Made by a program: the position numbers and the translations under genes | Notes under the pieces: model-generated | Told to the model about the DNA's origin: nothing | What the model saw: the letters and a program-made list of their open reading frames with translations, nothing else | The model's database searches: none | Origin: an uncultured Methanosarcinales archaeon | GTDB lineage: Archaea; Nanobdellota; Nanobdellia; Woesearchaeales; ARS49 | Reading direction: 5' to 3' | Length of the DNA: 59,119 nt | NCBI GenBank assembly: GCA_964362535.1 | Contig: CAYIEN010000004.1 | Location: forward strand, 3,571-62,689 | Part shown: piece after piece, positions 1 through 41,464 of the stretch | Numbering within the stretch: the stretch's first letter is position 1 | How the letters are laid out: each line of letters begins with the position of its first letter

Positions 1-86
1 ATAACCCATGTTGGCGATTTTCTTCAGCGTATCTTATAATACTTACCATCGAAACCTTTTTGAATAGAAACAAAGATACAGAATGC

Positions 87-521
87 ATGGCTTTGAAATT
101 TCCCGATTCTATGGAAGAATGTGTCTACTTCACAAGACGAGCAGACGGCACGTCAAAGAGCGTTACGTGGGTATTCAAGGAAAAGTGTCCGAAGTGCAAG
201 AAGGCATTCATGGGCAAGCCCGCGGAAGACGGTAAAGTAAAAATTCGAGCAAAAGAATACATTTGTCCGAGCTGTAAGCACACGGAAGAAAAGGAAGCGT
301 ACGAAGGTCAATTGACCGCAAACGTTCAGTACACCTGCGGTAAGTGCAGTCATGCGGGCGAAATCCAAATCCCGTACAAAAGAAAAACAGTCGGCGGCGT
401 GGAAGCGTTGGTCTTTGAGTGCGGCAAGTGCAAAGAACGCATTCTTATTACGAAGAAAATGAAAGATCCTAAGAAGAAGGGCAAGGCTGCTGAAGAAGAT
501 GCGGCTGATGACGACGATTAG
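87..521 (+). CDS. Multi-CxxC zinc-ribbon protein, acidic C-terminal tail (conserved hypothetical)
   Basis: Four CxxC pairs (CPKC, CPSC, CGKC, CGKC); ATG at 87 preferred over TTG at 60. Confidence 0.75.
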   Translation: MALKFPDSMEECVYFTRRADGTSKSVTWVFKEKCPKCKKAFMGKPAEDGKVKIRAKEYICPSCKHTEEKEAYEGQLTANVQYTCGKCSHAGEIQIPYKRKTVGGVEALVFECGKCKERILITKKMKDPKKKGKAAEEDAADDDD

Positions 522-572
522 TTATTTTTCTAGTTCAACGAATTTTTATACCTGTCTGAACTATTGCAGCGT

Positions 573-992
573 ATGGTACGAATAAATCTCGTTCATCCAA
601 AGCAGTTAGCTGATCAGCATTTGGTTGCGGAATACAATGAGATTTTGATGTTGGCTGCGTACATTAGAAAATATCCTGATCTAAAGAATATTCCAAAAAA
701 ATACTGTTTGGGCTTTGGTCACATGATGTTTTTCAAGAATAAGGTAGTTTACCTCCGACAAAGACATGAATTGTTGAAGGTCGAGATGAAACAAAGAGGT
801 TTTCGGACGGCTAAATCCATCAATCTTAACGTATTCAGAAAAGAGAACAAAGGGAAGTGGAAACCGGTCGCACAAGATGTAGTTGTCATCAAAAAAAGGA
901 TTCTTTCAAAGTTAAGACTAAAACCAACTTATTATAGATATTGTGGAAAATACCGACAGGTTGATTTTTTTATTGACTTGCTGAAAAATTGA
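573..992 (+). CDS. denV: Pyrimidine-dimer DNA glycosylase, T4 endonuclease V family
   Basis: MVRINLVHPKQLADQHLVAEY.E, LGFGHMMFF.NK..YL.QR..L..EMKQRGF and KPTYYRYCGK align by eye with T4 endo V (MTRINL...LADQHLMAEYRE...LGAGHVTFFYDK...RPTWYKYYGK). Confidence 0.9.
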   Translation: MVRINLVHPKQLADQHLVAEYNEILMLAAYIRKYPDLKNIPKKYCLGFGHMMFFKNKVVYLRQRHELLKVEMKQRGFRTAKSINLNVFRKENKGKWKPVAQDVVVIKKRILSKLRLKPTYYRYCGKYRQVDFFIDLLKN

Positions 993-1073: not shown

Positions 1074-3047
1074 ATGCCAAAAAAGACGTTTTACATCACG
1101 CGGGCGATTGATTACCCGAATGGAAAGCCGCATGTTGGTCATGCGTATGAATTCGTTGTAGCTGACGCACTTGCACGATGGCACCGATTGGCGGGTGAAG
1201 ATGTGCATTTCTTGTGCGGCACGGACGAGCACGGCCAAAAGATTGAGCGAACGGCAAAGGCAGCAGGTAAAGAGCCTCAAGCATTCGTCGACCACCAAGC
1301 AAAATTCTTCACAGAATTAGGAAAACTTCTCAACGTCACCAATGATGACTTTATTCGAACGAGCGAAGAACGCCACACCAAGGCAGTCCAGGAGCTCTTT
1401 GAACTCTTGCAAGCCAAGGGTGACATCGAACTCGGAAAATATGAAGGTTTGTACTGCACGGGCTGCGAAGCGTTCAAGACCGACAAAGATCTCGTTGACG
1501 GCAAGTGCCCAGACCACAAGAAAGAGCCCGAAACAATCAAGGAAGAAAGTTACTTTTTCAAACTCTCCAAATACCAACAAAAACTCTTAGACCACATTTA
1601 CAGTCATCCTGACTTCATCCTGCCGAAAAGACGCAGAGACGAATTCATTAACCAAATTAAGGAAGGTCTGCACGACATTTCAGTTTCACGAACCTCAGTC
1701 AAGTGGGGCGTTCCGGTCAAAAGCAATCCAAAACATACCATCTACGTTTGGGTTGACGCACTTCCGAACTACATCACGGCATTAGGTTGGCCTGACGGCA
1801 AATTGTTCAAGAAGTTCTGGCCCGCGGACGTTCATATCGTGGGAAAAGACATCGCGCGATTCCACGTCATTATTTGGCCTGCGATTTTGATGTCGGCTGG
1901 CATCGAGCTTCCGAAATCGGTTCACACGCATGGCTTCATCAATCTCGCGGGCGAAAAACTCTCAAAATCAACCGGCGTAAAGGTCGACCCTGTAGAACTC
2001 ATTGACAAATATGGTGCAGATGCACTCAGATACTATTTCCTCAGGGAAGTTCCTGCGGGTGAAGATGGCGATTTTACGGAAGCAGCGTTGGTCGAGCGAG
2101 CAAACGCAGATTTGGCAGATGGAATAGGCAATCTTCTCAACCGTGTCTCGACCTTAGTCCACAAGAATTTCGGCGGCGAAATACCAACGCCAACAACGTT
2201 CCAAGCAGTCGACAACGACCTCATTGAACAATCAAAAATAGTCGATGCAGTCGACGCGTTGATGCGCGAATTTGAATGGCACAAAGCAGTCGAGAAAGTG
2301 TGGGACTTCATCCGTTACTGCAACAAATACCTTTCATTTACGCAGCCGTGGAAGCACACGGATGACAAAGACCGAATTGCGACAGTCTTGTACTCATTAA
2401 TAGAGTCGCTCAGAATCCTTTCCATCCTTTCAAGTCCGTTCATTCCGCACACGGCGGAAAAGGTAGCAATCCAACTCAGTCAAAAGATAACCAGCCTCAA
2501 AGACGCAGTTTTCGTCAAGACAACAAAGGGCAATCTCAAAGAAACAAAGCCAGCATTCCTCAAGCTCGAAATCATCAAGGAAGATCCGTTTGCGAAAATC
2601 AATCTCAGAGTTGCGGAAATCAAAGACGTTCAAAACCATCCGAACGCGGATAAATTGTACGTTTTGAAAGTGCACGTTGGCAACGAACACCGACAATTAG
2701 TCGCAGGCATTAAGGCATACTATAAACCTGAAGAATTAGTAGGGAAAAAAGTCATTGTTGTTTCAAATCTCAAACCCGCAACTCTCCGAGGTGTTGAATC
2801 CCAAGGAATGATTTTAGCTGCGGAAAAGAACGGTGTTGTTAAAGTGCTCGACCCTGGAACAGCAAACGTCGGCGACCAAGTAGTTGTAGACGGCATCACG
2901 CCAAAACAAGACCAAATCACCATCGATGACTTTGCAGCCATCACGTTAACCACGAAAAACAAGCACGTTGTCTACGGCGAACACGTTTTGAAAACAAAGC
3001 AAGGACCCGTAACGGTTGACTTGGAAGACGGCGCGAAAATCAAATAG
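1074..3047 (+). CDS. metG: Methionyl-tRNA synthetase with C-terminal Trbp111/OB tRNA-binding domain
   Basis: YPNGKPHVGH (HIGH), GTDEHGQK, single Zn knuckle CTGC..CPDH, YVWVDAL, KLSKS, C-terminal HPNADKLY/NLKPATLRGVESQGMIL. Confidence 0.97.
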   Translation: MPKKTFYITRAIDYPNGKPHVGHAYEFVVADALARWHRLAGEDVHFLCGTDEHGQKIERTAKAAGKEPQAFVDHQAKFFTELGKLLNVTNDDFIRTSEERHTKAVQELFELLQAKGDIELGKYEGLYCTGCEAFKTDKDLVDGKCPDHKKEPETIKEESYFFKLSKYQQKLLDHIYSHPDFILPKRRRDEFINQIKEGLHDISVSRTSVKWGVPVKSNPKHTIYVWVDALPNYITALGWPDGKLFKKFWPADVHIVGKDIARFHVIIWPAILMSAGIELPKSVHTHGFINLAGEKLSKSTGVKVDPVELIDKYGADALRYYFLREVPAGEDGDFTEAALVERANADLADGIGNLLNRVSTLVHKNFGGEIPTPTTFQAVDNDLIEQSKIVDAVDALMREFEWHKAVEKVWDFIRYCNKYLSFTQPWKHTDDKDRIATVLYSLIESLRILSILSSPFIPHTAEKVAIQLSQKITSLKDAVFVKTTKGNLKETKPAFLKLEIIKEDPFAKINLRVAEIKDVQNHPNADKLYVLKVHVGNEHRQLVAGIKAYYKPEELVGKKVIVVSNLKPATLRGVESQGMILAAEKNGVVKVLDPGTANVGDQVVVDGITPKQDQITIDDFAAITLTTKNKHVVYGEHVLKTKQGPVTVDLEDGAKIK

Positions 3048-3519
3048 TTTTTTGTTCCTCTAAAGTTGGTTTTGTACCCCAATAGTTTCGCCACTTGTCT
3101 AAGAAATAACCGTATGCGCGGCTCATGGTTGCGCCAATAAGTAGGCCGCAGGGCAATGCAATTTTTGCTTTGTCAAACGACGTGCCAGATAGCGCAAGAA
3201 TGGTTGAATAGACGGGCAATTGGTACGCGACACCAAATACTGTATCAAATGCGTTTTTCTTGAGGTTTGAGCTTTCAGGGGTTACGCCGAGCTTTTCTGC
3301 AGTGTAGTGGCGTAATGCACCTTGGGGTCTTGCAGTAAACAAATGAATTGCCGCGGCGCATGCGCGTGAAACCGCAACTTGTTTAGGAGTCATTCCGGAA
3401 GCAAATTCCGTCATCGCCATGAGTGGCATGTAAAATGTCCAAGATGCGGTAGTATCAACAATGTATTTTTTCAGCAGCCCTGCTTCCACGCGTTCCTCAA
3501 GTGTTTTCATGTTATTCAT
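3040..3519 (-). CDS. alaE: L-alanine exporter AlaE family membrane protein
   Basis: VDT..S...E..SGM...Q...SR, ARP.G..R, D......Q.PVY..IL...G and YGYFLD..R match E. coli YgaW/AlaE; start could also be 3510 or 3531. Confidence 0.8.
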   Translation of the reverse strand: MNNMKTLEERVEAGLLKKYIVDTTASWTFYMPLMAMTEFASGMTPKQVAVSRACAAAIHLFTARPQGALRHYTAEKLGVTPESSNLKKNAFDTVFGVAYQLPVYSTILALSGTSFDKAKIALPCGLLIGATMSRAYGYFLDKWRNYWGTKPTLEEQKTI

Positions 3520-3558
3520 TCGGAAAACCAAGTTTATGAGTGTGCGTTGTAGTGTGCG

Positions 3559-4752
3559 CTACTTCACTGATTTGACATCGAAAAGGCGAAGAATTTTCTC
3601 ATTGCCAAGCGGAGCGTATTCGCAGAAAACATGTCGTTGTGGTGATTTGACGCGCAAGGTGTTATTTTTCAAGTACATTACTAACTCATCAAGTGAGTGT
3701 TCATTAGGGATGGTGTGGAGGTCAGTCAAATCAGCTTCTTTATCGAGAAGCCATGCGGTGGTCGTGTCATTTGGGAGATATGGGGTAAGAGGAGTTCCAA
3801 CACAAATTGCGTTTTCTCCCGTTGGAGTGAAGACGAGAGTCACGGCATTTGTGAAACTTCTCTGCAGAGACCCAGAATGGCAGGAAAGGATGGCGAGTGG
3901 TTTTTCCGCGTTGAGTTTTGTAGGGATTATGTCAGTATCAGAACGCGTGTGTATGTAACAATAAAGGGTTTCCCGAGGAGACTCTCCCCCTCGAACAAGA
4001 ACGGAAAGACCATGCCCGTTCCATGCCACATCTCGCAAAATGAGTTTTGCATCAAGTCCATTGAGTGAAGGCAGGTCTTGAAAACGAATGACTAATTGGT
4101 CTTGCGGTTGGCCCGACGCGTCATACACAATGACATCTGGTTTGTCATCTTGCTCAAATGGTTTTTCGCGTGACTCGGTCCATGCAATAACGTTTCCATT
4201 GGAAATTTTGATGTTTCCTTGTGTGAACGCACGTTTTATGGTATTGCTCTGAGTGTCGTAGCACAAGATGGATGCTCCCTCGACATCTTCATCGACTGTG
4301 ATTGGTTTAGTGGTGCCATCGAGGAGGGAAGTGCCTTCTTGTTCGCGTATGCGTAGAGGTTCAAACCATAGTTCGTGGTCTGATGTCCAATCATAAATCC
4401 GGCGTACGTCTTGTATAACTGCTCGCTTTCCTTTTTGATTTTGAATTATGAGGGAGAATTGAGACAGATATGCGCAATATGTTGCGCCAGTGGTCATTTT
4501 TGCATCGCTTATTTTTTGATCATCTGAGATTTTTCGTATTTCTGCTCCAACGGCATTTTCTAGCAGAAAGAGACCATTCTCGGTTTGGTAAAGGACGCAA
4601 CTATTTCTGAGAGTTGCGGCATGATGTTTGTCATACTCTTTTCGGTTTGCGTAAGTGGAGTTGGTTTCTTCTCGGGTCAACAGAGTACTTAAGTTAGGTT
4701 CTCCTGCGCAGCCTGCGAGAAGTCCTGCAAGAAGTATTTTCGCGAGTTTCAT
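3559..4752 (-). CDS. Predicted lipoprotein, probable beta-propeller (TolB/WD40-like)
   Basis: Lipobox MKLAKILLAGLLAG-C; blade-like motifs DWTSD, AWNGHG, FTPTGE; ATGA overlap with the upstream gene. Confidence 0.6.
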   Translation of the reverse strand: MKLAKILLAGLLAGCAGEPNLSTLLTREETNSTYANRKEYDKHHAATLRNSCVLYQTENGLFLLENAVGAEIRKISDDQKISDAKMTTGATYCAYLSQFSLIIQNQKGKRAVIQDVRRIYDWTSDHELWFEPLRIREQEGTSLLDGTTKPITVDEDVEGASILCYDTQSNTIKRAFTQGNIKISNGNVIAWTESREKPFEQDDKPDVIVYDASGQPQDQLVIRFQDLPSLNGLDAKLILRDVAWNGHGLSVLVRGGESPRETLYCYIHTRSDTDIIPTKLNAEKPLAILSCHSGSLQRSFTNAVTLVFTPTGENAICVGTPLTPYLPNDTTTAWLLDKEADLTDLHTIPNEHSLDELVMYLKNNTLRVKSPQRHVFCEYAPLGNEKILRLFDVKSVK

Positions 4753-6821
4753 GGTTTCTCCGCGTTTTTGTATGCTCGTTCAAGAAGGTTTTTTTGGTCT
4801 TGTGTGAGTGAACTGCTGTTTTCCAATATGAAACGTGTCTCGAATTCGAGCATGTCTGCATTGTTTTTCTTTTGCAATCCCTTGATGATGGCGTCGACTG
4901 CAATTGTGAAATCGTTTGATTCTGCGGCGTATATCGCAAGCGAAATATTTGTTTTTACTCCTGTATCTGTTTCAGTTGCTTTTTTGAAATAGGTGAGTGC
5001 GGCTGCGTGGCTGTTCATTGTGTGAGTATCTTTGAAATGTAGGCTATATGCAGTGGCAATGCGTTCAAAGACGTCTGCTGTTTGTGCCCACTGAAGAGCA
5101 TTCTGGATGCTGCTTTCATCAAGTATTTGGGTCGTCTTATCATATGCTTTGTCAAGATAGGCTATTTTTATGAGTCCTTCGATTTTTATTTCAAGCTCGT
5201 CTCGGGTTTTTGTTATTTCTTCAAGGTGGGCTTTTGTTTCATCGATTTCTTTTTCAAGGACAGAGACTCGAGTGTTTGATTTGTATTGGTTGATTTCTTT
5301 CTGTGCTTGGTCGAGTTGCAGTTTGATTGCTTCTTTCTCCTGAATTTTGGTGTTGTATTCGGCAATGAGTTTTTCTTTTTCTGCAGTGCGGCTTTCAGTA
5401 TCAGAAGTTATCTTTTTGTCAAGTGCAGTTATTTGGTCGGCTTTCTCTTTTTCCGAGGCGGTTAAGGTGGTGATGGAGGCAATTTTTGTGGCAAGGTCAG
5501 TTTCCAGAGCGGTTTTTGCTGCGGCAAGTGCATCGTACTTTTTTTGTAGGTCGTCGCCTGCCTGTTTGTATTTAGTGCATTCTGTTTTCATGAATTCGTA
5601 TTCGGTGCGTGAAACTTTTTCAGGGTCAGCATTTATTTTTTCAATACGTTCCAATAACAAATTTTTCTCCTGTTCGAGAGATAGGTATTTGGTATTAGCT
5701 GAGTTCACTGCTGTGTTAAGCGCGAGTTGGTCATCTTTGATTTGTTTGTTGAGCTTCTGTTCCGCTGTTTCGCGTTCGACGTGAGCCAGTTCGGTTTGTT
5801 GCTGCAGTTTTTGTGTGAGTGTTTCGGCGTTTGCTGTTTGTTCGTTTGCGACTTTTTCAACGGCGTTTTTTCGTTCGTAGGTCAGAGAGGTGAATACTCC
5901 GCCAAGAAGGGTAGTTGCGGTGAGGAGGAATGTGAGTGATTTGAACCGCGAAGAGAGCTGTTTTTTTTCTATCAATTGCTGTGAAACCATTTTTGCTGAG
6001 CTTTCTTTTGCTTCGGCATGGGTTTTCTTGAGTTGTTCAATCTCGGCAGCGTGCTTTACCTGTGTTGAATCGTGCAGGGACTGGTGGTTGGGTAAGTCGC
6101 AGAGTGCGGATTCCATCTGATTGCGGGCAAGCGCACTGGCGGGATGTGTGGCAAGTGCATGGGCAATCGCGGCAAAGGACTGTTCTTTTTTACCCAATGC
6201 GCGGTACGCGCGGGAGGCTTCCAAATGTTGGAATTCAGTGAGTTTTTTTGTTTCGAGTGCGCGTTCGTATCCGGTGATGAGCATTTCATTTACTGCTTTG
6301 AAGATATCTTTCGAAATGATGTGCGCAGCAGGGGAAGGAGGGGTTGATTCTTCGTGTAACTTAATGAGGCTTGCTTGGAGAACAAGTAGGTCGAGAGGGG
6401 GTTCTTTCATGAGCTGCGTTGCTGACAGTAAGGACTCAAACTGCGTTTTTTGGTCTTTGAGCTGTGCTGCTGCTTGCGCTTTTATCAGGTACGCGTCTGC
6501 TTGTTTGTCAGGAAGAACGTCTCTGCCAAGTATTGAGTTCGCTTTTTCCATGGCGAGCGAGGGTTTGTCAGGTAGCGCTGTTTTGCCAATTTGTAGTTGA
6601 GTCGTTGTGAGTTCTAAGAGGGAATTTGGGTGTTGCGGATTGTCAATTAATGCTTTCAGCAGTATGTCTTCGATTTCGGTCAAGAACTTCGGCTCATCTT
6701 TTGCATTTTTTGGACCGATCATCTTCAGTTTCTTCACTGTTTTGTACAGTTCCTCCGCGGAATTGAGTTTTTCGTACTCGGCAGTTTCCTGAAGGAGTTT
6801 GATGACTTTTTCGATTTTCAT
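4749..6821 (-). CDS. TPR-repeat / single-TM / long coiled-coil / TPR membrane protein
   Basis: TPR-like helices (ALIDNPQH, AYLIKAQAA, AYRALGKKEQ, ALTYFKKA); TM LTFLLTATTLLGGVFTSL; about 240 aa E/K/Q heptad region. Confidence 0.65.
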   Translation of the reverse strand: MKIEKVIKLLQETAEYEKLNSAEELYKTVKKLKMIGPKNAKDEPKFLTEIEDILLKALIDNPQHPNSLLELTTTQLQIGKTALPDKPSLAMEKANSILGRDVLPDKQADAYLIKAQAAAQLKDQKTQFESLLSATQLMKEPPLDLLVLQASLIKLHEESTPPSPAAHIISKDIFKAVNEMLITGYERALETKKLTEFQHLEASRAYRALGKKEQSFAAIAHALATHPASALARNQMESALCDLPNHQSLHDSTQVKHAAEIEQLKKTHAEAKESSAKMVSQQLIEKKQLSSRFKSLTFLLTATTLLGGVFTSLTYERKNAVEKVANEQTANAETLTQKLQQQTELAHVERETAEQKLNKQIKDDQLALNTAVNSANTKYLSLEQEKNLLLERIEKINADPEKVSRTEYEFMKTECTKYKQAGDDLQKKYDALAAAKTALETDLATKIASITTLTASEKEKADQITALDKKITSDTESRTAEKEKLIAEYNTKIQEKEAIKLQLDQAQKEINQYKSNTRVSVLEKEIDETKAHLEEITKTRDELEIKIEGLIKIAYLDKAYDKTTQILDESSIQNALQWAQTADVFERIATAYSLHFKDTHTMNSHAAALTYFKKATETDTGVKTNISLAIYAAESNDFTIAVDAIIKGLQKKNNADMLEFETRFILENSSSLTQDQKNLLERAYKNAEKP

Positions 6822-8062
6822 TTTTTGGTTCCGTTCGTTTTCGGTTCAAGAGAGGTCCATACGCGATAGGTTTCAGGCGGCAGGTCAGTCCATGCGGAAA
6901 CAATGTTATTCGCAGTGGTTTTGGAGGAGTATTTAGCTAATTCCTCAGGAGATAGGCTAGTGGTGGCCGTGATTTCTTCAGTATCGATAAGTTTATTCTT
7001 TTTGATGAGCATGCGCACATATGGTGCCAGGGCTTCCGCAGAGAGTTTTTTTTTTATTTGCAACAATGATTCATTCGTTTTTTTGAGAAGTTCAGAGTCT
7101 GAAGCGAGAGGGAGTTGAGAATTATCAAAAAGGGAGCAGTATGCGTGTGATGCTGCGACGAAGGTGGGGAGTGTGGGTGCGGAGCAAACCATCTTTTCAA
7201 GGTTAAGCAGGTCTTGTTTTCGCGAAAGGAGGTGGAAATCGAATTCAGCGCTTCGCGCGTCACGGTATCGTTCTGAGGGTTCTTGGCGGGTGCAGCGGGT
7301 GAGGATGGCAGCGAATGGTTCGCGGTATTCTGAAGGGATGTTGATGAGTGATTGAGGATTGATTCCGTGGCCGTTTTCTGTTTTGGCAGAGGGCTTGGCT
7401 AAGAGTCCTGAACAGAGTCGTGAGATGAGTGTGCCTCCTGCGTAGACATCTGATGCTGCTGTTGCTTTGCTTCCTCGACTGCATTCCGGCGCGATGTAGC
7501 CAGGAGTTCCAAGTGTGCGGGTGAGGGTTTTCCCTTCCTGCACGGAGAGTCCGAAATCGATGATTCTGAGGTCGATAAAGTCTTCTTTGCGCAGTACGAC
7601 GTTTCCAGGGGCGATATCGCGGTGCACAATTCCTTTTCCATGGATTGCTGCCAGCCCTGAAAAGAACTGATGGGTGATGGTGTTGTAATCTCCTGCAGTT
7701 AGGTCTGAGGCGTATACTCTGACGAATTTATCAAGACCGAACGCCCCCTCGAAGTCATCCATGATTGTCCAAATGTCTCCGTTTTCCGTTACAAATGAGT
7801 CGTAAAATTTGATGACGTGGTCATTGCTGATCTTTTCCAGGCTTTTGATTTCTGCAGTTATTTGCGCGATTTCTTCAGCGGGAGAGTCTTGATTGTCGTA
7901 CTCAGGTGTTGCAAATTTAATGCGGAATTTTCCGGGACGGGAGGGGTGTGTTGCGATGAACTGCATGGTGCGTTCGTCTATGTACGAGATGACCTTGTAT
8001 TTGCGGCGGTTAAGGTCGAGTGTTGCTTGCGCATTTTCGATGGCTTTTGTGTGTCCGCTCAT
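6818..8062 (-). CDS. Hanks-type Ser/Thr protein kinase with C-terminal extension
   Basis: RIK lysine, EI..L, HGKGIVHRDIAPGN, IIDFG, GTPGYIAPE, SDVYAGG, P.ERY; canonical Gly-rich loop absent. Confidence 0.93.
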   Translation of the reverse strand: MSGHTKAIENAQATLDLNRRKYKVISYIDERTMQFIATHPSRPGKFRIKFATPEYDNQDSPAEEIAQITAEIKSLEKISNDHVIKFYDSFVTENGDIWTIMDDFEGAFGLDKFVRVYASDLTAGDYNTITHQFFSGLAAIHGKGIVHRDIAPGNVVLRKEDFIDLRIIDFGLSVQEGKTLTRTLGTPGYIAPECSRGSKATAASDVYAGGTLISRLCSGLLAKPSAKTENGHGINPQSLINIPSEYREPFAAILTRCTRQEPSERYRDARSAEFDFHLLSRKQDLLNLEKMVCSAPTLPTFVAASHAYCSLFDNSQLPLASDSELLKKTNESLLQIKKKLSAEALAPYVRMLIKKNKLIDTEEITATTSLSPEELAKYSSKTTANNIVSAWTDLPPETYRVWTSLEPKTNGTKK

Positions 8063-9936
8063 TGTCGCATCACCTTTACTTGAGCAAAGGATTTGCCAAT
8101 GATGCTTTCATATTTGAAGTCGGTGAGCATTCGTTTTTTTGAGATGGGGTAGATGGTGAGTTGGGCGGGGCTGAGGGCGTAGAGATAGTTGTCGACTGAG
8201 TCAAATGCGATATTTGCGACGGGGGCTTTGATATCTACGCTATCGAGGTGACTGATTTTGCCGTCAAAGGTAGACAAGGAGACTTCATTTCCGCAAGTTG
8301 CAAACAGAAGAATGTCTTGACTGTCTCGGGCATATGCGAGTGCGGTGCCGCCGGTTGCAGGGCAAAGATCGCCACAGGAGGTGTTGGTTATGTGAATCAT
8401 GGGTGCGCCTGCGTGTTTTCCGTGCATTGCAAAAATGCCGTTTTGGAGTATGTGCAGGGAGCGTGGTTCCGTGATATCAAGTTTTCGTAGCAAGGTGGAT
8501 TTGCCATCTGTCCACTGATAAATTTCGCCGATTGCGGTTCCAAGATAAATTTGGCCATCCGTGACCGCGATTACTTCGGCAGGGATGTCTAATTTGTGTT
8601 CGAGGTCTCCTTGGTGTAATATTTGCGTTGTTTTGCGGTCTTCAATGGCGTAAATAATTTTTTGGTAAATGGCGGCATCCGAGAAGCATCCGGGGCGGTA
8701 GAGTTTGAATCCTTGGGTGTTTCCGCGGAAGAGTCCGCGTACGCTTGTTGCGGCGAGGAGTTCGTTTTCAGATGCAGAAAGTGAAGGGAGTGGCGCAGGA
8801 ATTTTAATGCGGACTTCCTGTTGCTGATTTTGTCGGTGGTGGTATGAAGCGATGCGGACTTCGCCTGCGGAGCGGTCGAATACGGCTGCGTGGCTCCAGG
8901 TCGGTCTGTAGGTTGGCATTGCTTCTTGTTCTTGTTTGATGTGGATGCAGAGTGTTGCGAAGTCTTCGTCTTCTTTGCACTTTTTGGCGGCGTCGATAGG
9001 TTTTGTGACGGTGGTTGCGCGGTAGGTTCCTTTTTCGGTGAGTCTGTTTACAAGCGGGGTGGTGATGACTGCGCCATCGGCAAAGTCGCAGGGCTGGCCC
9101 CAAAGGAATGGAGGTCTATTTTTTTTGGTGCCGCGGAGAGCGAAGTCAGAGAGGGATGCGGTTATTTCCTGGGAAGTGCTTCCAAAGGCGGCCATGTAGC
9201 TTTCGCCCATATTTTTGATTTCTTCCACTATTTTTTCGAGTGTTGGGCGGTATTCGATAGGACCGTGCATAGGTGGGAGTATAACGATGGTATTTCCTCC
9301 GTGTTCACCGAGGATGCAGGATTCGCGAACGTGCCTTTGTGTGATGTTTGCAGGGTCTCGGATTTGCGCATCTCTTAGCAACGCTTTTAACCGTTCATTT
9401 TTCGGGTCAAATGCGACAATTTGTCCTTGTTCGAAATGTTTTTCTTTCGCGAGCTGGTATGCCAAGGAATGCGTGGGGTTTGTAACGAGAACAATTTGGC
9501 TTTTGGTTTTTAGTTCGATAAATTTGTTGGCAAGGTCTTGGAGGACAGAATAGTTGGAGGGAAAGAGTTTTTTGCGGTTGTCTTGTTCCCACATGAAGTT
9601 GCTGTTTTTGGCGCCTGCAAGGGATTCGTAGCACAAAAAGGTGATTTCTGCTTCCTGTGCGATTTCTTCTACGGATGCGTAACGAATGTTTCTTGCGCGG
9701 GCTTCTTGAGGTTCGAGATGCAGCGGACCTTGAATAAAAAGTCGGATTTTTTCTTTGTCTTGAATGGTATCGCGATTGTTGAGGAGAAGTCCGCCGAGTC
9801 CGTGGATTTTTCCGCGGTCCTCGAGTTTGATTGCGAGAGCATGTCCGACAGAACTATTGCTGCCGATGCCGATGATGCCGATGCGGGGGCCCCGCTTTGT
9901 GTACATCCCATCCACCGAGTCTTGCATGAGCGCCAT
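8059..9936 (-). CDS. Lactate/malate dehydrogenase-fold domain fused to a C-terminal beta-propeller-like domain
   Basis: IGIIGIGS..VG Rossmann motif, R.KLF..N, VLVTNP, ILGEHG in the first ~340 aa; C-terminal strands such as DGQIYLGT..GEIYQW and IAFDSVDNYLYAL. Confidence 0.7.
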   Translation of the reverse strand: MALMQDSVDGMYTKRGPRIGIIGIGSNSSVGHALAIKLEDRGKIHGLGGLLLNNRDTIQDKEKIRLFIQGPLHLEPQEARARNIRYASVEEIAQEAEITFLCYESLAGAKNSNFMWEQDNRKKLFPSNYSVLQDLANKFIELKTKSQIVLVTNPTHSLAYQLAKEKHFEQGQIVAFDPKNERLKALLRDAQIRDPANITQRHVRESCILGEHGGNTIVILPPMHGPIEYRPTLEKIVEEIKNMGESYMAAFGSTSQEITASLSDFALRGTKKNRPPFLWGQPCDFADGAVITTPLVNRLTEKGTYRATTVTKPIDAAKKCKEDEDFATLCIHIKQEQEAMPTYRPTWSHAAVFDRSAGEVRIASYHHRQNQQQEVRIKIPAPLPSLSASENELLAATSVRGLFRGNTQGFKLYRPGCFSDAAIYQKIIYAIEDRKTTQILHQGDLEHKLDIPAEVIAVTDGQIYLGTAIGEIYQWTDGKSTLLRKLDITEPRSLHILQNGIFAMHGKHAGAPMIHITNTSCGDLCPATGGTALAYARDSQDILLFATCGNEVSLSTFDGKISHLDSVDIKAPVANIAFDSVDNYLYALSPAQLTIYPISKKRMLTDFKYESIIGKSFAQVKVMRQ

Positions 9937-10032
9937 TTGTTTATAAATGTAACTTATTATTAAGTAGTAACGGAATATTTCGGTATTGTTGTTGTATGAA
10001 GGACACTAAATATAGTCGGTTAACTATGTATG

Positions 10033-10053
10033 TTGTAGTGATGACCACTACAA
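10033..10053. promoter_or_regulatory. Palindromic operator candidate between divergent promoters
   Basis: Perfect inverted repeat TTGTAGTG-N5-CACTACAA. Confidence 0.55.
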
Positions 10054-10086
10054 ACATTCAAAAGAATTATAAGTAGAATACTGGTT

Positions 10087-10872
10087 ATGAGTCATACAAT
10101 GCCGAATCCAAAAGAAGATCTTCTTCGTGAATTAGGTTTAAGTGTGAATGAGGCAAAAGTTTACTTAGCGTTGCTGCGTATCGGGTGCGTGAGTGCGGGA
10201 AAAATAGCTGAGGCGTGCAAGCTTCATCGGACGAATGTATATGACTCTCTTGAGCGTCTTGAAGAAAAAGGACTTGTTTCGTTCATCATGAAAGAGGAAA
10301 CAAAACTGTTTGAAGCTGCTGATCCAGAAACGTTCAAGCACGTTCTTGACGAACGCCGAGCGCGTTTTGATGTTATGTTGCCCCAGCTCGCTCTCGACAA
10401 GCAGCTTGGTACAAAAGCAACCGCACAAGTATTTGAAGGCATTTCTGCATGGAAAATAGCGGCGTTCAACCTTTTAAAACACAAACAGACCATCAAAACG
10501 TACGGAGTGCCAAAAAATGCGCCTGAGCTCATGAAACACTTTGTCGACATGTTTCATCAGACTCGCATTCAGAAAAAAATATTGATGCAACATTTGTACA
10601 ACGAAAATGCGAAGGAGCGCATCAAATATTTGAATGGTTTGCAATTTACGGAAGCGAAATATTTACCCCTTGAATTCGATACACCTGTCACGACGACTGT
10701 TTGCGGTAATGAAGTTTTAATTACGCATTGGGATGCTGATCCGGTGACGTTCATTCGCATTGAAAATGCTGCTTTGGCTGATGTGTACCGTAAATATTTT
10801 GATGTGTTGTATGCGCAAGGAAAACTTCCTGATGATGATGTTGCGGGCAAAAGAAAGTTCAGTCGCAAGTAA
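10087..10872 (+). CDS. TrmB-family transcriptional regulator
   Basis: LGLSVNEAKVYLALL, HRTNVYDSLERLEEKGLV wHTH, FEAADPE, C-terminal effector domain. Confidence 0.9.
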   Translation: MSHTMPNPKEDLLRELGLSVNEAKVYLALLRIGCVSAGKIAEACKLHRTNVYDSLERLEEKGLVSFIMKEETKLFEAADPETFKHVLDERRARFDVMLPQLALDKQLGTKATAQVFEGISAWKIAAFNLLKHKQTIKTYGVPKNAPELMKHFVDMFHQTRIQKKILMQHLYNENAKERIKYLNGLQFTEAKYLPLEFDTPVTTTVCGNEVLITHWDADPVTFIRIENAALADVYRKYFDVLYAQGKLPDDDVAGKRKFSRK

Positions 10873-12391: not shown

Positions 12392-12511
12392 GCGCCGGTA
12401 GCGAAGCGGTCAAACGCGGGGGACTTAAACGTCCGTCAACTACTTTGGTTGATACGCAACTGAGCAATCCTTTGTCTTAGGACTTCGGAGGTTCGAATCC
12501 TCCCCGGCGCA
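12392..12511 (+). tRNA. trnL: tRNA-Leu(UAA) with 37-nt canonical 37/38 intron (12430-12466)
   Basis: Acceptor GCGCCGG/CCGGCGC plus A73; anticodon TAA at 12426-12428; BHB with central helix CUUA/UGAG and bulges AAC and CAA; long variable arm GTC-TTAG-GAC; T arm GGAGG-TTCGAAT-CCTCC; CCA not encoded. Confidence 0.95.
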
Positions 12512-21029: not shown

Positions 21030-21965
21030 ATGAAGCGTAAAATTATGCAGGTCGCGGAGTCCACGCAGCTTATTTCGTTGCCAAGAAAGTGGTGTTTGGA
21101 GCATAAGTTGAAGCGGGGCGATGAGGTTGAAGTGACTCCGAAAGGAAACACGTTGCTGGTTTCGGTTCAGGGCGATTTTGAGCATGGAAAAGCTGATGTT
21201 GATGTCTCAGACCTCGATAGAAGTTCGTTGCTCTTGCTTATCAGAGGGCTTTACAAGAAGGGGTATGACGAAATCACGCTGCGGTTTTCGAAGGCAAGTT
21301 TGGTGCATTTCAGAACGAAGAAAGAGGTCAACATCAGTAAGCTTATCCACGACGAAGTCGTGCTGTGTCCGGGGATGGAGTTGATTGAGCAGCGTTCGAA
21401 TTATTGCGTTTTGAAGGCGTTGTCGAATGCTGATCCGAAGGAGTTTGACAATCTGTTAAGGCGTATGTTTTTTCTCATCGCAGATACTTGTACGGACTTG
21501 GTTCAGGCCTGTCAAACGAATGATGCTGTTTTGTTGGGTTCCATTGAAGAAAAGCATGATAATATTACGAAGTTCACGAATCACTGCACGAGACTAATCA
21601 ATAAGCAGCAGGATAATGCGAATGCGCCTTTTGTCGCGTTGACTGTGCTGTTGCTCGAAAAATTTGTTGACTTTATGAAAAATACTGCGCGAGAGGTGAG
21701 AAGCTATCGGAAAAAGTTATCTCCTAAAACGTCGCAGATCATTGCCGAGATTTTAGGTGCATATCCGTTGTTTTATGATTTGTACTATAAGTTTTCTTTG
21801 GAGAATATCCAAAAAATAAGTCAGTTGAAGGAGACGACGCAGCAGAATATTTTGACAAATGCAAAAAAGTTGCCGAAGGAAGAACTGATGATTTTATCGG
21901 GGTTAAACGAGTCGCTGGAATTGTTCCGTACGCTTACTGAGGCTCGGATGGCTTTGGAGTACTAG
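21030..21965 (+). CDS. phoU: Archaeal phosphate-uptake regulator (AbrB/SpoVT N-terminus plus PhoU repeats)
   Basis: MKRKIMQ..ST.LISLPRKW....L..GDEV; LLRRMF; helical PhoU repeats. Confidence 0.88.
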   Translation: MKRKIMQVAESTQLISLPRKWCLEHKLKRGDEVEVTPKGNTLLVSVQGDFEHGKADVDVSDLDRSSLLLLIRGLYKKGYDEITLRFSKASLVHFRTKKEVNISKLIHDEVVLCPGMELIEQRSNYCVLKALSNADPKEFDNLLRRMFFLIADTCTDLVQACQTNDAVLLGSIEEKHDNITKFTNHCTRLINKQQDNANAPFVALTVLLLEKFVDFMKNTAREVRSYRKKLSPKTSQIIAEILGAYPLFYDLYYKFSLENIQKISQLKETTQQNILTNAKKLPKEELMILSGLNESLELFRTLTEARMALEY

Positions 21966-23847
21966 GCGCTCGGAGCGGATGGGCTTCTAGCATGCGTGGC
22001 AATTGTGTCCACGTTTCGAGTGCTCGTTCGTCGATGGGTTTGATGCGGTAAAATTTTCCGTTGGTTTTTGCGAATCCGAACGTTACTGCGTAAGGGTCTG
22101 ATTTGACACTTCGCTCGATGAGGTCGTCCCCGAGTTGGTAGAGTATGCCATCATTGAAGGCGGTCAGTGTGTCGTTTCCTTTTCCGAAAACGGTGAGTGG
22201 CAGGTATTCTTTCGAGTTATTGCGCGCGCGGGATTTGAGCCCGACGGTTTTTTCAATGAGGTCAAGAATGATTTCGCGGGGTTGCATGGATGATTCGTGA
22301 ATTTTAGGTTCCTCGAGCCAGACTCCGATGCGTCCGTAGAGACCAGAGGAAAGTTTTACTTCAAGTGACCGGAATTTTTTGAGTTCGTCGGAATGCATTT
22401 GTTTTTCCGTGCCGTATGCTTCAAGAACGGATGGGTTGATGGTGAGCGTAATTTTTTCGCGGTGGTAGTGCATGGTGAGGAAGTTGTGGGGGAGTACTTT
22501 TCGGAGGATGGTGCGCGCGTAGTCTTCGCCTTCATGTTCATGTTCCCATTCAACGATTGCTTCAAGCATGCTCTGCACTTTTGCTTGTCCTGAGACGGTG
22601 GTGTTGATTCCGTATTTGAATAGGTTTCTGTTGGCGAGGAATTGTTCGTAATTGGATTTGAGGTCGTGCAGTCGATTTTCTTTTTCTTTGAGTGAACCTT
22701 CGCGGTTGACGAGTCGTACTGCGAGGGTGTCTGGGTCTGCAAAAAAGAGTATGGGAATGGTGCTGTTTCTGCGCTGGTCGTTGAATTTGCTGATGATTGG
22801 ACTTAGTGTTTTCGGATCTGTGACGGTGAGGAGGATGTCGCGTCCACGGTCGAGCTGTTCAATGACTTGTTCTCGGATTCCGTATCGTTCGTTGTTCACG
22901 GAGTAGGTGAGAAAGTATTTCTTTCCGCGGACATTGTACGCAAAGTGTTTTTTGCTGATGAATTGTGCATGTCTTCCGGCGATTTCTTCAGGTCGCGGAA
23001 GGCGGGTCATGTCTTTTTGGACTGTTATGACTTCAGGGAACGATTCGTGCATGTGGAACACTGCTTCGCTTTTTCCTGCGGCGGTTGGTCCGGCGATGAT
23101 GTAGCATTTGCCGCGGGTGTTAAGGGTGTCTGTTCCGTGCTGGAATGTTTTTTTTACGAAGGTGTGTATGGCGTTGGAGGTGTGGTTGTCTTTTTTGATG
23201 AAGACTCCGCCTTTGGAATATGTGAATCGCGCGTCGTTTCCGTCGCCGATTCCGATGACGCTTGCGTGGGGGAAGGTTTCGATTGCGGGTTTAAGGAGCG
23301 GTTTGATGTGGTGTCCTTCGATGACGATGAAGTCAAATGGCACGCCGTGGTGTTTGTACTGGTCGAGCTGGGTGGATTTAATGTCTTGGGAATGGAGGGT
23401 GGTGACGATGCCGTCTTCGCGTTCGAATGCTTCTTTGAGGGTGCGTGGGTCGCTGGCGCTGAGGAGGAGGATGTGTGGTCGTGCGCGAAGGTTTGTTTTG
23501 AGTTGTTCGACAATTGCTGCGACGGTTTCGATTTTGCTGTCAGGGGTGAGTGTGTAGGTGCGGGGGTCATTTGTCTGGGGCACGGTGTTTGGTGATCCGA
23601 TGAGTAGGATGGTGGATTGCGGGTTTTTTTCGCGGTAGGCTTCGATGGCAAGTTTGGTGTCGAGTTCTGTTTCGCTGGCCATGCGCGCGATGACGGGTGA
23701 TCGTTTTTCGGTTTCGGAGGCATCGAGTTCGAGAACGCTTTTGAAACCGAAGCCACGTTTTTTGACTTCGTCTTGGATGATGAGTTCGATAGGGGAGACT
23801 TCAAGATGTTGTTTCAGAAATATGACTGTTGCAGGTGTTGGCACCAT
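21934..23847 (-). CDS. Multidomain protein: receiver-like N-terminal domains, guanylate-kinase/PhnN-like P-loop domain, unknown C-terminus
   Basis: IIAGPTAAGKS, DMTRLPRPEEIAG..AQFIS, RYGI, RLVNREG; N-terminal FDFIVIE..FPHASVIGI..VFIKK. Confidence 0.65.
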   Translation of the reverse strand: MVPTPATVIFLKQHLEVSPIELIIQDEVKKRGFGFKSVLELDASETEKRSPVIARMASETELDTKLAIEAYREKNPQSTILLIGSPNTVPQTNDPRTYTLTPDSKIETVAAIVEQLKTNLRARPHILLLSASDPRTLKEAFEREDGIVTTLHSQDIKSTQLDQYKHHGVPFDFIVIEGHHIKPLLKPAIETFPHASVIGIGDGNDARFTYSKGGVFIKKDNHTSNAIHTFVKKTFQHGTDTLNTRGKCYIIAGPTAAGKSEAVFHMHESFPEVITVQKDMTRLPRPEEIAGRHAQFISKKHFAYNVRGKKYFLTYSVNNERYGIREQVIEQLDRGRDILLTVTDPKTLSPIISKFNDQRRNSTIPILFFADPDTLAVRLVNREGSLKEKENRLHDLKSNYEQFLANRNLFKYGINTTVSGQAKVQSMLEAIVEWEHEHEGEDYARTILRKVLPHNFLTMHYHREKITLTINPSVLEAYGTEKQMHSDELKKFRSLEVKLSSGLYGRIGVWLEEPKIHESSMQPREIILDLIEKTVGLKSRARNNSKEYLPLTVFGKGNDTLTAFNDGILYQLGDDLIERSVKSDPYAVTFGFAKTNGKFYRIKPIDERALETWTQLPRMLEAHPLRAPSTPKPSEPQ

Positions 23848-28689: not shown

Positions 28690-29364
28690 ATGAATGTCGG
28701 CGTTTTGTTCTCTGGTGGCAAGGATTCGATGCTTGCGCTCTTGCGTGCGAGAGAAGAACACAAGATTGCTTGCTTGATTACGCTCGTTTCTCTGAACAAA
28801 GAATCATTTATGTTTCACACGCCGAATATTGACGTGACGACGCTCCAAGCTGAAGCGTTGAAGTTGCCTTTGGTAAGAGTAGTTACGAAGGGTGAGAAAG
28901 AGCACGAGTTGAAAGATCTCAAGGCAGCGTTGGAGCAGGCCAAACGAAAGTACAAATTGCAAGGTATCGTTACGGGCGCAGTTCGTTCTACGTATCAAGC
29001 AACCAGAATCCAGCAAATCTGCCACGAGCTCAACCTCTGGTGCTTCAGTCCGTTGTGGTTGCTCGACCAAATCGAACTCCTGAATGAAGTCTTGAAAAGA
29101 AAAATGAAGGTCATTATTTCCGGCGTGTTTGCGGAACCGTTGGACAAATCTTATTTGGGTAAACAGATTGACAAAGCACTCATTGCAAAGCTCGCGAAAG
29201 CAGCGGCGACGCACAAGATTAATCCTGCGGGTGAAGGCGGCGAAATCGAAACGACTGTTTTGGATATGCAACTGTTCAAGAAGCCCATTGTCGTGAAAAA
29301 GTCAAGCACTGTTTACGAGAACTTCGCAGGTACGTTTACGATTCACGGGGCAGGGGCTAAATGA
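28690..29364 (+). CDS. dph6: Diphthine--ammonia ligase (Dph6/DUF71)
   Basis: SGGKDS, SFMFH.PN, S.YQ..RI, PLW, NPAGEGGEIET.V.D. Confidence 0.93.
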   Translation: MNVGVLFSGGKDSMLALLRAREEHKIACLITLVSLNKESFMFHTPNIDVTTLQAEALKLPLVRVVTKGEKEHELKDLKAALEQAKRKYKLQGIVTGAVRSTYQATRIQQICHELNLWCFSPLWLLDQIELLNEVLKRKMKVIISGVFAEPLDKSYLGKQIDKALIAKLAKAAATHKINPAGEGGEIETTVLDMQLFKKPIVVKKSSTVYENFAGTFTIHGAGAK

Positions 29365-31633: not shown

Positions 31634-32248
31634 ATGCTCCTCACGTGGTTTGGTCATTCTTCCTTTATGATAGAGTATGGGAATAAGGTGATTTACATTG
31701 ATCCGTATGAGGGTGATTATGAAAAAGCAGCTGATCTAGTGTTGATTACAAAAGAGTCTTATGACCATGTCAGCCGTTCTGTTTTGAAGAAGATTACGGT
31801 GGATAACACGCACGTGTTTGGGCCGAAGGAAATCGCAAGCGAGGTTCTTGGTTGTCGTCCGTTTGTGCCGAATGAGACGATTACGTTTGAGGACAATACA
31901 AAAATTCAGGCAACGGCGGCCATCATCAACCGCAGAGATTTTCACGCGGAAAGTTTGGGCTGGTTGTTGACGATTGAGGGCAAAACGTTGTATTTTACGG
32001 GTGATACAGACGTCCTTCCAGCCAAGGTCGGCAACCCGTACGCGGTCATTATTCCGGTTGGTGGTACGTTTACGATGAGCACGAAGGCTGCGGTGCAAGC
32101 CGTAAAGCTTTTGAAGCCGAAGCACGCTATACCTACCCATTACGGTAAGACTGCCGGGACGACTGACGATGCGGATGTTTTCAAAGAATTGCTCGAGGGC
32201 GAAACAGATGTTATTATTCTTCAGCCAGGCAAAGGAGTGCCATTATGA
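31634..32248 (+). CDS. Metallo-beta-lactamase-fold protein with degenerate metal motif
   Basis: LTWFGHSSF, IYIDPY, LITKESYDH in place of HxHxDH, YFTGDT, PVGG.FTM, IPTHYG. Confidence 0.85.
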   Translation: MLLTWFGHSSFMIEYGNKVIYIDPYEGDYEKAADLVLITKESYDHVSRSVLKKITVDNTHVFGPKEIASEVLGCRPFVPNETITFEDNTKIQATAAIINRRDFHAESLGWLLTIEGKTLYFTGDTDVLPAKVGNPYAVIIPVGGTFTMSTKAAVQAVKLLKPKHAIPTHYGKTAGTTDDADVFKELLEGETDVIILQPGKGVPL

Positions 32249-40996: not shown

Positions 40997-41464
40997 CTAA
41001 CGTTGGAGAGATGCCTTTTTTCTCTGTTGGAGGAGTTGTTTGTATTGCCAGAGTCGTTCTTTCAGGAGAAGTTGTTCAGAATTAGGCGTAGTTCGAGCAA
41101 GTGCTTGTAACGCATACTGTGCTGCGCCAATGGCGTGTGTTCGGACGTGTGCGGTTGCGACGGCTTGGCCGGAAGCTCGAGCGGCAGAACGTGCAGGTGT
41201 GTCCTCTCCGACGTCGCGGGCGGCTGCGTGCGAGTCTAAGGATGCTTTGCGAATAACTCGCATTGAGAATACTCCTGTGCGTATCCATTGTTGTAATGTT
41301 TCAAGCGCTATTCTTGGTCGTTTGTCTGCAGGATATTTTTTTTCGAAGAATGGCAATACTCGTTTTGCGCAGTCAATTGTCCAACGAGCGAGTGTTTTAT
41401 GGTCTGTCTTTGCAATGAGCGTGACGAGTTTCGGATCTTTTTGTGCGATGGTGAACGGTTTCAC
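40997..41464 (-). CDS. Imm5-like putative immunity protein
   Basis: LA.W..DCA.RVL..FE...P.D.RPR.AL....W; HAAAR; AARA.GQA.ATAH...HA. Confidence 0.8.
   Translation of the reverse strand: MKPFTIAQKDPKLVTLIAKTDHKTLARWTIDCAKRVLPFFEKKYPADKRPRIALETLQQWIRTGVFSMRVIRKASLDSHAAARDVGEDTPARSAARASGQAVATAHVRTHAIGAAQYALQALARTTPNSEQLLLKERLWQYKQLLQQRKKASLQR

Follow-up and report, generated by a model that had tools for sequence, protein, structure and literature searches.

Does a run of four overlapping genes in a small archaeal genome, encoding a dehydrogenase-like protein, a protein kinase and two proteins with envelope features, make up a signalling system, and in which direction would such a system act? 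The question is raised by a 59,119-nt stretch of DNA (the window) from an uncultured Methanosarcinales archaeon (GTDB lineage Nanobdellota, Nanobdellia, Woesearchaeales, ARS49; assembly GCA_964362535.1, contig CAYIEN010000004.1, forward-strand positions 3,571 to 62,689). Its minus strand carries g1, with a lactate/malate dehydrogenase (LDH/MDH)-like domain, g2, a Hanks-type Ser/Thr kinase, g3, with a single hydrophobic segment and a long helical stalk, and g4, with a lipobox. A first-pass annotation, made from the sequence without database searches, had put the four genes forward as a candidate for an undescribed transmembrane signalling system.

The genes g1-g4, together with a divergent TrmB-type gene next to g1, are read here, with slightly less than even confidence, as the strain-specific version of a module that recurs in a class of small-genome DPANN-type archaea. 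In the recurrent unit a TrmB-like regulator is combined with a Hanks kinase, usually a PP2C phosphatase, and an LDH/MDH-like protein that evolves fast and varies in its C-terminal extension. The most probable reading is that of phospho-signalling linked to a metabolite or to redox state, with envelope proteins as strain-specific cargo; we infer the mechanism below.

Recurrence of the gene neighbourhood

With g1 as a single query, one relative was found in 41 genomes, in G010 (another genus of the same family), where the gene order is TrmB, g1-like (829 aa), PP2C and kinase. The cluster was not found with this query in six congeners. Alignment searches of two samples of ~400 genomes each, which cover part of the class, gave matches in 40 of 401 genomes of the order and in 92 of 401 of the phylum-wide sample, among them many canonical MDH genes of ~300-345 aa and a set of longer g1-family genes. 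From the two samples 29 of the longer loci were fetched (seven genomes flagged as unpublished enter the tallies only). The neighbourhood set comprises 31 loci identified by way of relatives of g1 (the window, L003, L051-L059 and L068-L087), which represent 22 coded families of the archaeal class, with four families in another order. A g1-family protein of 625 aa or more is called a long form (n = 20); the short forms number 11.

A TrmB-type gene is directly adjacent to the g1-family gene in 20 of the 31 loci and lies within four genes of it in 23. Kinase genes are present within three genes in 14 loci (12 above the Pfam cut-off, those of L074 and L078 below it) and PP2C genes in 13. A kinase or a PP2C accompanies 17 of the 20 long forms, and a separate kinase or PP2C none of the 11 short forms; in the three remaining long-form loci an AAA ATPase occurs together with an unknown protein of 610-764 aa. 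In L068 the Ldh_1_N and Pkinase domains are found in one 590-aa open reading frame (ORF) beside a TrmB gene, the kinase part scoring 123.9 bits and being 28% identical to g2, and in L075 and L082 the LDH-like domain is followed by a Response_reg-like C-terminus, below the Pfam cut-off. The first-pass annotation had made its proposal depend on homologs that co-occur. For g1 and its kinase or PP2C neighbours they do, with one fusion. As no homolog of g3 or g4 could be detected, conservation does not extend to the set of four genes as a whole; the partner that is conserved, and that the annotation missed, is the divergent TrmB-type gene.

The dehydrogenase-fold domain is regarded as a phospho-signalling element, not a housekeeping MDH, because its ligand-binding residues are kept amid fast divergence, because it is fused once to a kinase and twice to a receiver-like domain, and because the long forms nearly always occur with a kinase or PP2C. 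On these grounds we argue that the LDH-like domain may be a ligand-binding sensor or a regulated enzyme of phospho-signalling. Downstream of the kinase the relatives encode beta-helix, FG-GAP, TPR or PP2C-TM/coiled-coil proteins, a variety that points to a variable slot, filled here by g3 and g4.

Other genes also recur around the g1 family. An AAA ATPase of the classic clade (467-578 aa, with an FtsH/PAN/Cdc48-like core) is located near g1-family genes in 16 loci, among them L052, L054, L055, L070, L076 and L077, as are, repeatedly, unknown proteins of 457-823 aa; neither is present in the window. The LDH-receiver-like proteins of L075 (7508..10330) and L082 (7291..10151) adjoin aldehyde-dehydrogenase-like genes and look like a more metabolic variant.

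The LDH/MDH-like protein g1

As a single sequence, g1 matches LDH/MDH models weakly, without reaching the cut-offs of Pfam or NCBIfam (Pfam Ldh_1_N, E 0.0014; NCBIfam MDH, 4.2e-7; PDB 2x0i, 1.2e-4). With a profile built from g1 and ten relatives, solved LDH/MDH structures are retrieved at E 1.3e-31 (profile positions ~31-352), and the N-terminal half of the AlphaFold2 (AF2) model matches LDH/MDH structures in Foldseek at E 1.7e-9 (template modelling (TM) score 0.51 by target; Foldseek on this model is informative for the N-terminal domain only). The LDH/MDH fold of the N-terminal domain, already proposed from the bare sequence, is thus confirmed.

In LDH/MDH enzymes R109, R171 and H195 (dogfish numbering) are the substrate and catalytic residues; their equivalents in g1 are R121, R182 and H212. 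Among 34 family members the R109 equivalent is kept in 32, and those of N140, R171 and H195 in 33 each, while the equivalent of D168, the partner of the catalytic histidine, is Asp in 29 and Glu in three. Of 11 canonical MDHs from the same class, 10 have the Asp at the end of strand beta2, compared with one of the 34 g1-family members. At this site g1 reads NNR and lacks the acidic residue of NAD specificity, a loss which makes NADP(H) possible for g1. Identity to g1 is 13-21% across the 11-member alignment. In a quick maximum-likelihood tree 10 of the 11 canonical MDHs form one tight clade (support 99), and the g1-family branches measure ~1.2-2.6 changes per site on an unresolved backbone.

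The closest solved structures belong to the archaeal LDH-like MDH and L-2-hydroxycarboxylate dehydrogenase (NAD(P)+) group (PDB 2x0i, 1hye, 9sa7, 9sc9). With the LDH/MDH superfamily g1 shares the fold and the equivalents of R109, N140, R171 and H195; the g1 family differs from it in the low identity, the long branches and the loss of the beta2 Asp, as well as in an extra C-terminal part of 280-450 aa and in phospho-signalling gene neighbours, and g1 itself also in the insertion in the glycine loop. An LDH fold inside a larger non-metabolic protein is likewise found in UEVLD (human UEV and LDH domains, PDB 2i6t), which ranks 20th for g1 in Foldseek (E 4.8e-8), any relation being by fold only; UEVLD is eukaryotic, has no kinase link and carries another fusion partner.

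The C-terminal part of g1 had been annotated as a propeller. It is all-beta, but the AF2 model gives strands only, at a predicted local distance difference test (pLDDT) score of 30-57, and a propeller is a lead and not established; Atlas scores are 0.88-0.92 (0.88 to YncE/lactonase clusters), and WD40_like matches at E 0.072. No relative of this part was found by jackhmmer or hhalign, family members included. When the C-terminal parts of the long forms are compared profile to profile (hhalign), the best pair reaches 63.7%, and that of the window stays at 0.4% or less with all ten groups. In a protein-collection search no homolog of g1 was found among 7999 scored candidates, and the family profile retrieved only a 286-aa fragment identical to g1; since that search missed relatives later found in genomes, it is not evidence of rarity.

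Could g1 be a plain lactate- or malate-type dehydrogenase that has a regulatory tail, is under the transcriptional control of TrmB and is adjusted by the kinase, with g3, g4 and the neighbouring AlaE-like gene as unrelated genes that share a transcript? It is the sole LDH/MDH-superfamily match in its 98.6%-complete genome, the catalytic Arg, Arg and His are retained, and the short forms are simple pairs of TrmB and LDH-like genes. The TrmB regulators, which control sugar metabolism, and the aldehyde-dehydrogenase-like genes beside two relatives fit such an enzyme as well. However, no LDH-family match was found in the congeners G001-G003, so the function is not a core one, and the branches are far longer than those of the tight canonical clade. 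The NAD-binding Asp is lost and the glycine loop altered, and a long variable extension accompanied so regularly by a kinase or PP2C exceeds what is usual for a housekeeping enzyme. We consider this explanation unlikely, though not negligibly so.

The kinase g2 and known kinase systems

The kinase domain of g2 scores 101.6 bits against Pfam Pkinase (gathering score 31.7) and has the HRD, DFG (IDFG) and APE (IAPE) motifs. The initial description as an intact Hanks kinase holds for these features, but the catalytic-loop Lys and the glycine of the Gly-rich loop are missing. A conserved Trp in the C-terminal tail of g2 recurs in four of the six other neighbouring proteins that were aligned. In the source genome five Pkinase matches were found, four of them above the cut-off, and no PP2C match.

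Pairs of a Hanks kinase and a PP2C are known from bacteria (PknB/PstP, PrkC/PrpC) and from the archaeal ArnC/ArnD network of Sulfolobus. The module resembles them in the eukaryote-like kinase gene beside a PP2C gene in most relatives, in the logic of reversible phosphorylation and in the local transcription factor. It differs in that the partner is an LDH/MDH-like protein and not a PASTA, FHA or vWA domain, and in that the kinase of the window has neither a membrane anchor nor the catalytic-loop Lys, with a PP2C not found in the genome. Full-text literature searches gave no description of a module of LDH-like protein, kinase and TrmB, although supplementary tables might list such neighbourhoods. 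The main text of PMC7159879 does not contain 'lactate', 'malate dehydrogenase' or TrmB and has one passage on a kinase with PP2C and vWA in GTPase systems.

Could the locus be an anti-virus or conflict system, in which an invader is detected by the hypervariable C-terminal part of g1, signalling runs through the kinase (joined in relatives by PP2C and AAA ATPase), and the effector is the LDH-like domain or the envelope proteins? Its distribution is patchy, as the searches with g1 in the six congeners and at the congener syntenic loci show, and it lies in a 7.8-kb insert amid conserved genes. The very long g1-family branches, the C-terminal parts that cannot be aligned even profile to profile, and sub-threshold IetA/IteA matches of the AAA ATPases in the 16 related loci would also suit such a system. 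The best PADLOC and NCBIfam matches of g2, in turn, are the defence kinases MAD6 and PD-T4-6. However, these matches cover the kinase core only and are generic: the NCBIfam scores are 94.8 bits for MAD6 (cut-off 460) and 32.4 for PglW (cut-off 990), and none of the four proteins exceeds any NCBIfam cut-off. In PADLOC 2.0 g2 matches generic kinase families only, and g1, g3 and g4 match none. The likeness to PD-T4-6/Stk2, to MAD6 of MADS and to PglW of BREX thus ends at the kinase core, and partner genes of PD-T4-6, MADS or BREX were not found beside g2. Neither the four proteins nor 34 proteins of neighbouring genes gave a match to another component of a PADLOC system, no effector of the nuclease, NADase, protease or pore type could be recognised, and neither integrase genes nor flanking repeats were found. 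The conserved active-site residues and the dedicated local TrmB better fit metabolism or regulation. A conflict system is accordingly improbable in our view, but not negligibly so.

The same results bear on two ideas of the first-pass annotation. That no described system has this composition agrees with the PADLOC, NCBIfam and literature results. The proposed roles in host attachment or antiviral defence gained no direct support, with no PADLOC system matched and no effector recognised in the latter case.

The TrmB-type regulator and the shared intergenic region

The protein encoded divergently from g1 matches the Pfam TrmB helix-turn-helix (HTH) model at 61.9 bits (cut-off 25.6) and NCBIfam TrmBL1 at 30.8 bits (cut-off 650), the latter over the HTH only. 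Scoring far below the TrmBL1 equivalog cut-off, it is a TrmB family member and not a TrmB/TrmBL1 ortholog. It shares with TrmB/TrmBL1 of the Thermococcales and TrmB of Halobacterium the N-terminal winged-helix domain and the position of a local, often divergent regulator; it differs from them in its length of only 261 aa and in belonging to a multi-copy family. Its closest relatives (34-45% identity) adjoin g1-family genes in other genomes. In the reverse test, a g1-family gene was found nearby in three of five loci fetched from other genomes through TrmB alone. Among the 41 genomes searched, regulators of this type, ~250 aa long, are strongly expanded in some small genomes: G013 has 38 matches, and G022 and G026 have 19 apiece.

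The intergenic region shared by TrmB and g1 contains an inverted repeat, GTAGTG-N5-CACTAC (10035..10051), and further AT-rich palindromes, along with TTTATAAA at 9940..9947 and the element CGGAATATTTCGG at 9971..9983. About 0.4 palindromes with such 6-bp arms are expected by chance per 150 bp (estimate), so the repeat is a lead only. Across the loci, palindromes in the TrmB-g1 intergenic regions are suggestive and near the chance expectation.

The envelope candidates g3 and g4

The AF2 model of g3 (single sequence) is all-helical, with ~12 helices followed by three long ones (283-398, 405-512 and 518-566) and by seven short ones. The first-pass annotation described a single-pass protein with TPRs on both sides of the membrane and a stalk of ~240 aa. 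The single, moderately hydrophobic segment and the helical stalk (239 residues with one Pro and two Gly) stand, but the TPR_8 match does not reach the Pfam threshold (E 0.0054; 17.2 bits against 25.7) and consists of a single stretch, 601-618. Basic residues on the N-terminal side of the hydrophobic segment suggest an N-in orientation.

The start of g4, MKLAKILLAGLLAGC, contains a lipobox with Cys15 that matches the pattern [LVI][ASTVI][GAS]C after a short hydrophobic segment, and g4 is inferred to be a lipoprotein. The lipobox LAGC fits this part of the first-pass annotation, but its propeller-like blades are a lead only (Atlas feature score of 0.94 to YncE/Tricorn/PD40 clusters, TM score ~0.5).

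Both proteins are ORFans. The N-terminal domain of g3 retrieved only itself among 6453 candidates scored from a 5.8-billion-protein collection, and nothing credible was found for g3 in 41 genomes. Among 1.84 billion representative proteins g4 retrieved only itself, and among 41 relatives it was found in its own genome only. Searches of g3, g4 and the AlaE-like protein against the ORFs of all fetched loci gave no match save one of g4 at E 0.005 over 72 residues. A 692-aa protein at the position of g3 in L051 was considered and rejected, as it shows no similarity to g3.

In L003 (5094..8192, G010) and L052 (10804..13943, G044) runs of small paralogous genes are located downstream of the kinase. 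Their products begin with a helix of the 'KPELEEIL' or 'RLDEILKEIE' type, in several cases followed by a hydrophobic segment, and g3 starts with the similar IEKVIKLL. This shared N-terminal helix could be a common cytoplasmic tag; a loose pattern of the 'LEEIL' type matches 18 of 489 ORFs and is a lead only.

In the transmembrane scheme first proposed, g4 and the external part of g3 would sense surface contact, and g3 would signal to g2 and g1 inside the cell. All four genes are translationally coupled, g3 has predicted domains on both sides of one membrane segment, g4 has its lipobox, and in relatives the genes that follow the kinase encode TM or secreted-type repeat proteins. However, g3 and g4 are unique to this genome, and the module works elsewhere without them. 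Neither g1 nor g2 has a hydrophobic segment, and g2 has no recognised docking domain; the proposed signalling across the membrane gained no support. We hold such an outside-in receptor to be very unlikely; it is the least supported version when set against the conflict system and the recurrent phospho-signalling module.

Weighing of the proposed phospho-signalling module and its possible mechanism

Several observations weigh against reading g1-g4 and the TrmB gene as a version of a recurrent phospho-signalling module. The genomes compared are related to one another and do not count as independent cases. In 14 of the 31 loci (L068, with its fused kinase, among them) no kinase or PP2C gene lies within a few genes of the g1-family gene, and no TrmB-type gene is nearby in eight, two of which are at contig starts; TrmB genes are, moreover, multi-copy, with up to 38 matches per genome. 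The fusion of LDH-like domain and kinase is a single case, and 151 genomes belonging to G531's order yielded no second one. As g3 and g4 lack relatives, their link to the module depends on overlaps in one genome, and the AF2 models of g1 and g3 are of low confidence (mean pLDDT 45.7 and 52.3, respectively).

Residue deviations count on the same side. At the D168 site g1 reads DPKNER, with the Asp shifted by two residues, and in place of the canonical GxGxxG loop it reads GIGSNSSVG, with an insertion of three residues; to judge from these positions, the g1 of the window is unusual even inside its family. The catalytic loop of g2, HRDIAPGN, lacks the Lys of HRDxKxxN (HRDxKPxN is present in four of the five Pfam-confirmed sister kinases of the alignment), and its Gly-rich-loop region, IDERTMQF, has no Gly. 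Given these deviations, g1 and g2 could be inactive. The missing Lys and the PP2C not found in the genome suggest that g2 may be a weak kinase or a scaffold.

Within the recurrent module, the LDH-like domain would bind a 2-hydroxy or 2-oxo acid together with a nicotinamide cofactor, possibly NADP(H), and would be the sensed or regulated element, on which the co-encoded kinase would dock or which it would phosphorylate. The TrmB protein would set transcription from the shared 150-bp region. The proteins g3 (its N-terminus predicted inside, its C-terminus and helical stalk outside) and g4 would be the envelope cargo of the variable downstream slot. A flow from the cytoplasmic metabolic state to the envelope proteins thus appears more likely than a classical outside-in receptor. 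In a bolder version, which we think decidedly doubtful, the LDH-like domain would be a redox or 2-oxo-acid sensor gating a kinase/phosphatase switch over strain-specific envelope proteins (the g3 stalk and the g4 lipoprotein) in host-dependent archaea. If this were true, it would amount to metabolite-gated, inside-out control of the cell surface or of host contact, built on a dehydrogenase fold, which so far is not known to partner Hanks kinases.

To our knowledge, protein phosphorylation is poorly understood in archaea and hardly studied in those of the DPANN type. A dehydrogenase-fold protein as the recurrent partner of Hanks kinases, PP2C and a dedicated TrmB would be a new input or output element of signalling, and the module would give a testable handle on how metabolic state is coupled to regulation in genomes of ~1 Mb. 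The two ORFan envelope proteins show that the module can carry strain-specific cargo.

Organization and genomic context of the locus

The features of the locus are listed in Table 1. The junctions of g1-g4 are three 4-nt ATGA overlaps (TCAT on the plus strand) at 8059-8062, 6818-6821 and 4749-4752, exactly where the first-pass annotation had placed them, and Shine-Dalgarno-like GGTGA and GGAG are found 5-8 nt before the starts of g2 and g4. ATGA overlaps also join three plus-strand gene pairs elsewhere in the window (29361-29364, 32245-32248 and 34465-34468); being common, they indicate an operon and nothing rarer, and the architecture of g1-g4 is that of an ordinary operon. An A/C-rich coding strand had been taken as a mark of the four genes. 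The G-C skew of g1-g3 (-0.22 to -0.24) does differ from that of most other minus-strand genes (-0.01 to -0.13), but the plus strand is G-rich across the whole window, and the most extreme A/C-rich coding strand (-0.31) is that of another minus-strand gene at 21934..23847, which encodes 637 aa with a guanylate-kinase-like stretch only (Pfam E 1.5e-7) and is fast-evolving or orphan-like.

Table 1. Features of the g1-g4 locus in window coordinates.
Feature	Nucleotides	Residues	Strand	Basis or remark
AlaE-like small membrane protein gene	3040..3531		-	Pfam AlaE, E 2.9e-19 (L-alanine exporter family)
g4	3559..4752	397 aa	-	ATG start; ORF list
g4 predicted lipobox LAGC	4708..4719	12-15	-	Cys15
g3	4749..6821	690 aa	-	ATG start; ORF list
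g3 N-terminal helical domain		1-295	-	AF2
g3 hydrophobic segment	5880..5936	296-314	-	one segment, moderately hydrophobic
g3 helical stalk	5157..5873	317-555	-	~240 aa, Pro/Gly-poor
g3 C-terminal short-helix array		after stalk	-	AF2
g2	6818..8062	414 aa	-	ATG start; ORF list
g2 Pkinase domain	7265..7891	58-266	-	Pfam; C-terminal tail of ~130 aa behind
g1	8059..9936	625 aa	-	ATG start; ORF list
g1 all-beta C-terminal part	8062..8904	345-625	-	AF2 strands; unclassified
g1 LDH/MDH-like domain	8917..9936	~1-340	-	profile against PDB; Foldseek
TrmB-g1 shared intergenic region	9937..10086		.	150 bp
TrmB-type regulator gene	10087..10872	261 aa	+	Pfam TrmB; divergent from g1

The AlaE-like gene starts 27 nt past g4 on the same strand, and its end overlaps the end of the convergent methionyl-tRNA synthetase (MetRS) gene; it is possibly a fifth member of the g1-g4 unit. 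The stretch AlaE-g4-g3-g2-g1-TrmB (3040..10872) is the 7.8-kb insert mentioned above and sits between the conserved MetRS and DEAD-helicase genes. The MetRS and DEAD-helicase loci of three or four congeners were fetched, and neither the stretch nor the AlaE-like gene is found in them; the AlaE-like gene is part of the same strain-specific insert as g1-g4. In the fetched loci MetRS and its upstream neighbour are kept in G002, G003 and G006, the DEAD helicase in G002, G003, G004 and G006, and the neighbours of the latter (orf253, orf189 and a nucleotidyltransferase gene) in G002, G004 and G006. The search for repeats around the insert gave only short matches at chance level.

The source genome is a metagenome-assembled draft (0.91 Mb, 24 contigs), which, together with two genes without relatives, raises the question of an assembly chimera or of non-functional ORFs; this is exceedingly improbable, as 397-690 stop-free codons in DNA of 44-49% GC have an estimated chance of <1e-8 per frame at ~5% stop codons, and as Logan contigs of two DNA runs (one groundwater study, possibly of the source sample itself) match the window with 100% identity and span the joins MetRS/AlaE, g4/g3, g2/g1 and g1/TrmB/DEAD. 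Only these two runs are listed as containing the stretch, with no RNA run among them.

The rest of the window is archaeal housekeeping, with aminoacyl-tRNA synthetases, SRP54, FtsZ, eIF2-gamma, TFB, ZPR1 and a probable intron-containing tRNA. The window has only the tRNA in the interval from the DEAD helicase to orf253, and the orthologous interval contains a different Hanks kinase gene in L027 (8019..9239, G006) and L028 (9047..10291, G004). A tRNA match of 120 nt at 12392..12511 (plus strand; Rfam, 47.1 bits), which is not reported by ARAGORN, is probably an intron-containing archaeal tRNA. A putative Imm5-like immunity protein (PF21805, E 1.6e-41) is encoded amid the housekeeping genes at 40997..41464 on the minus strand.

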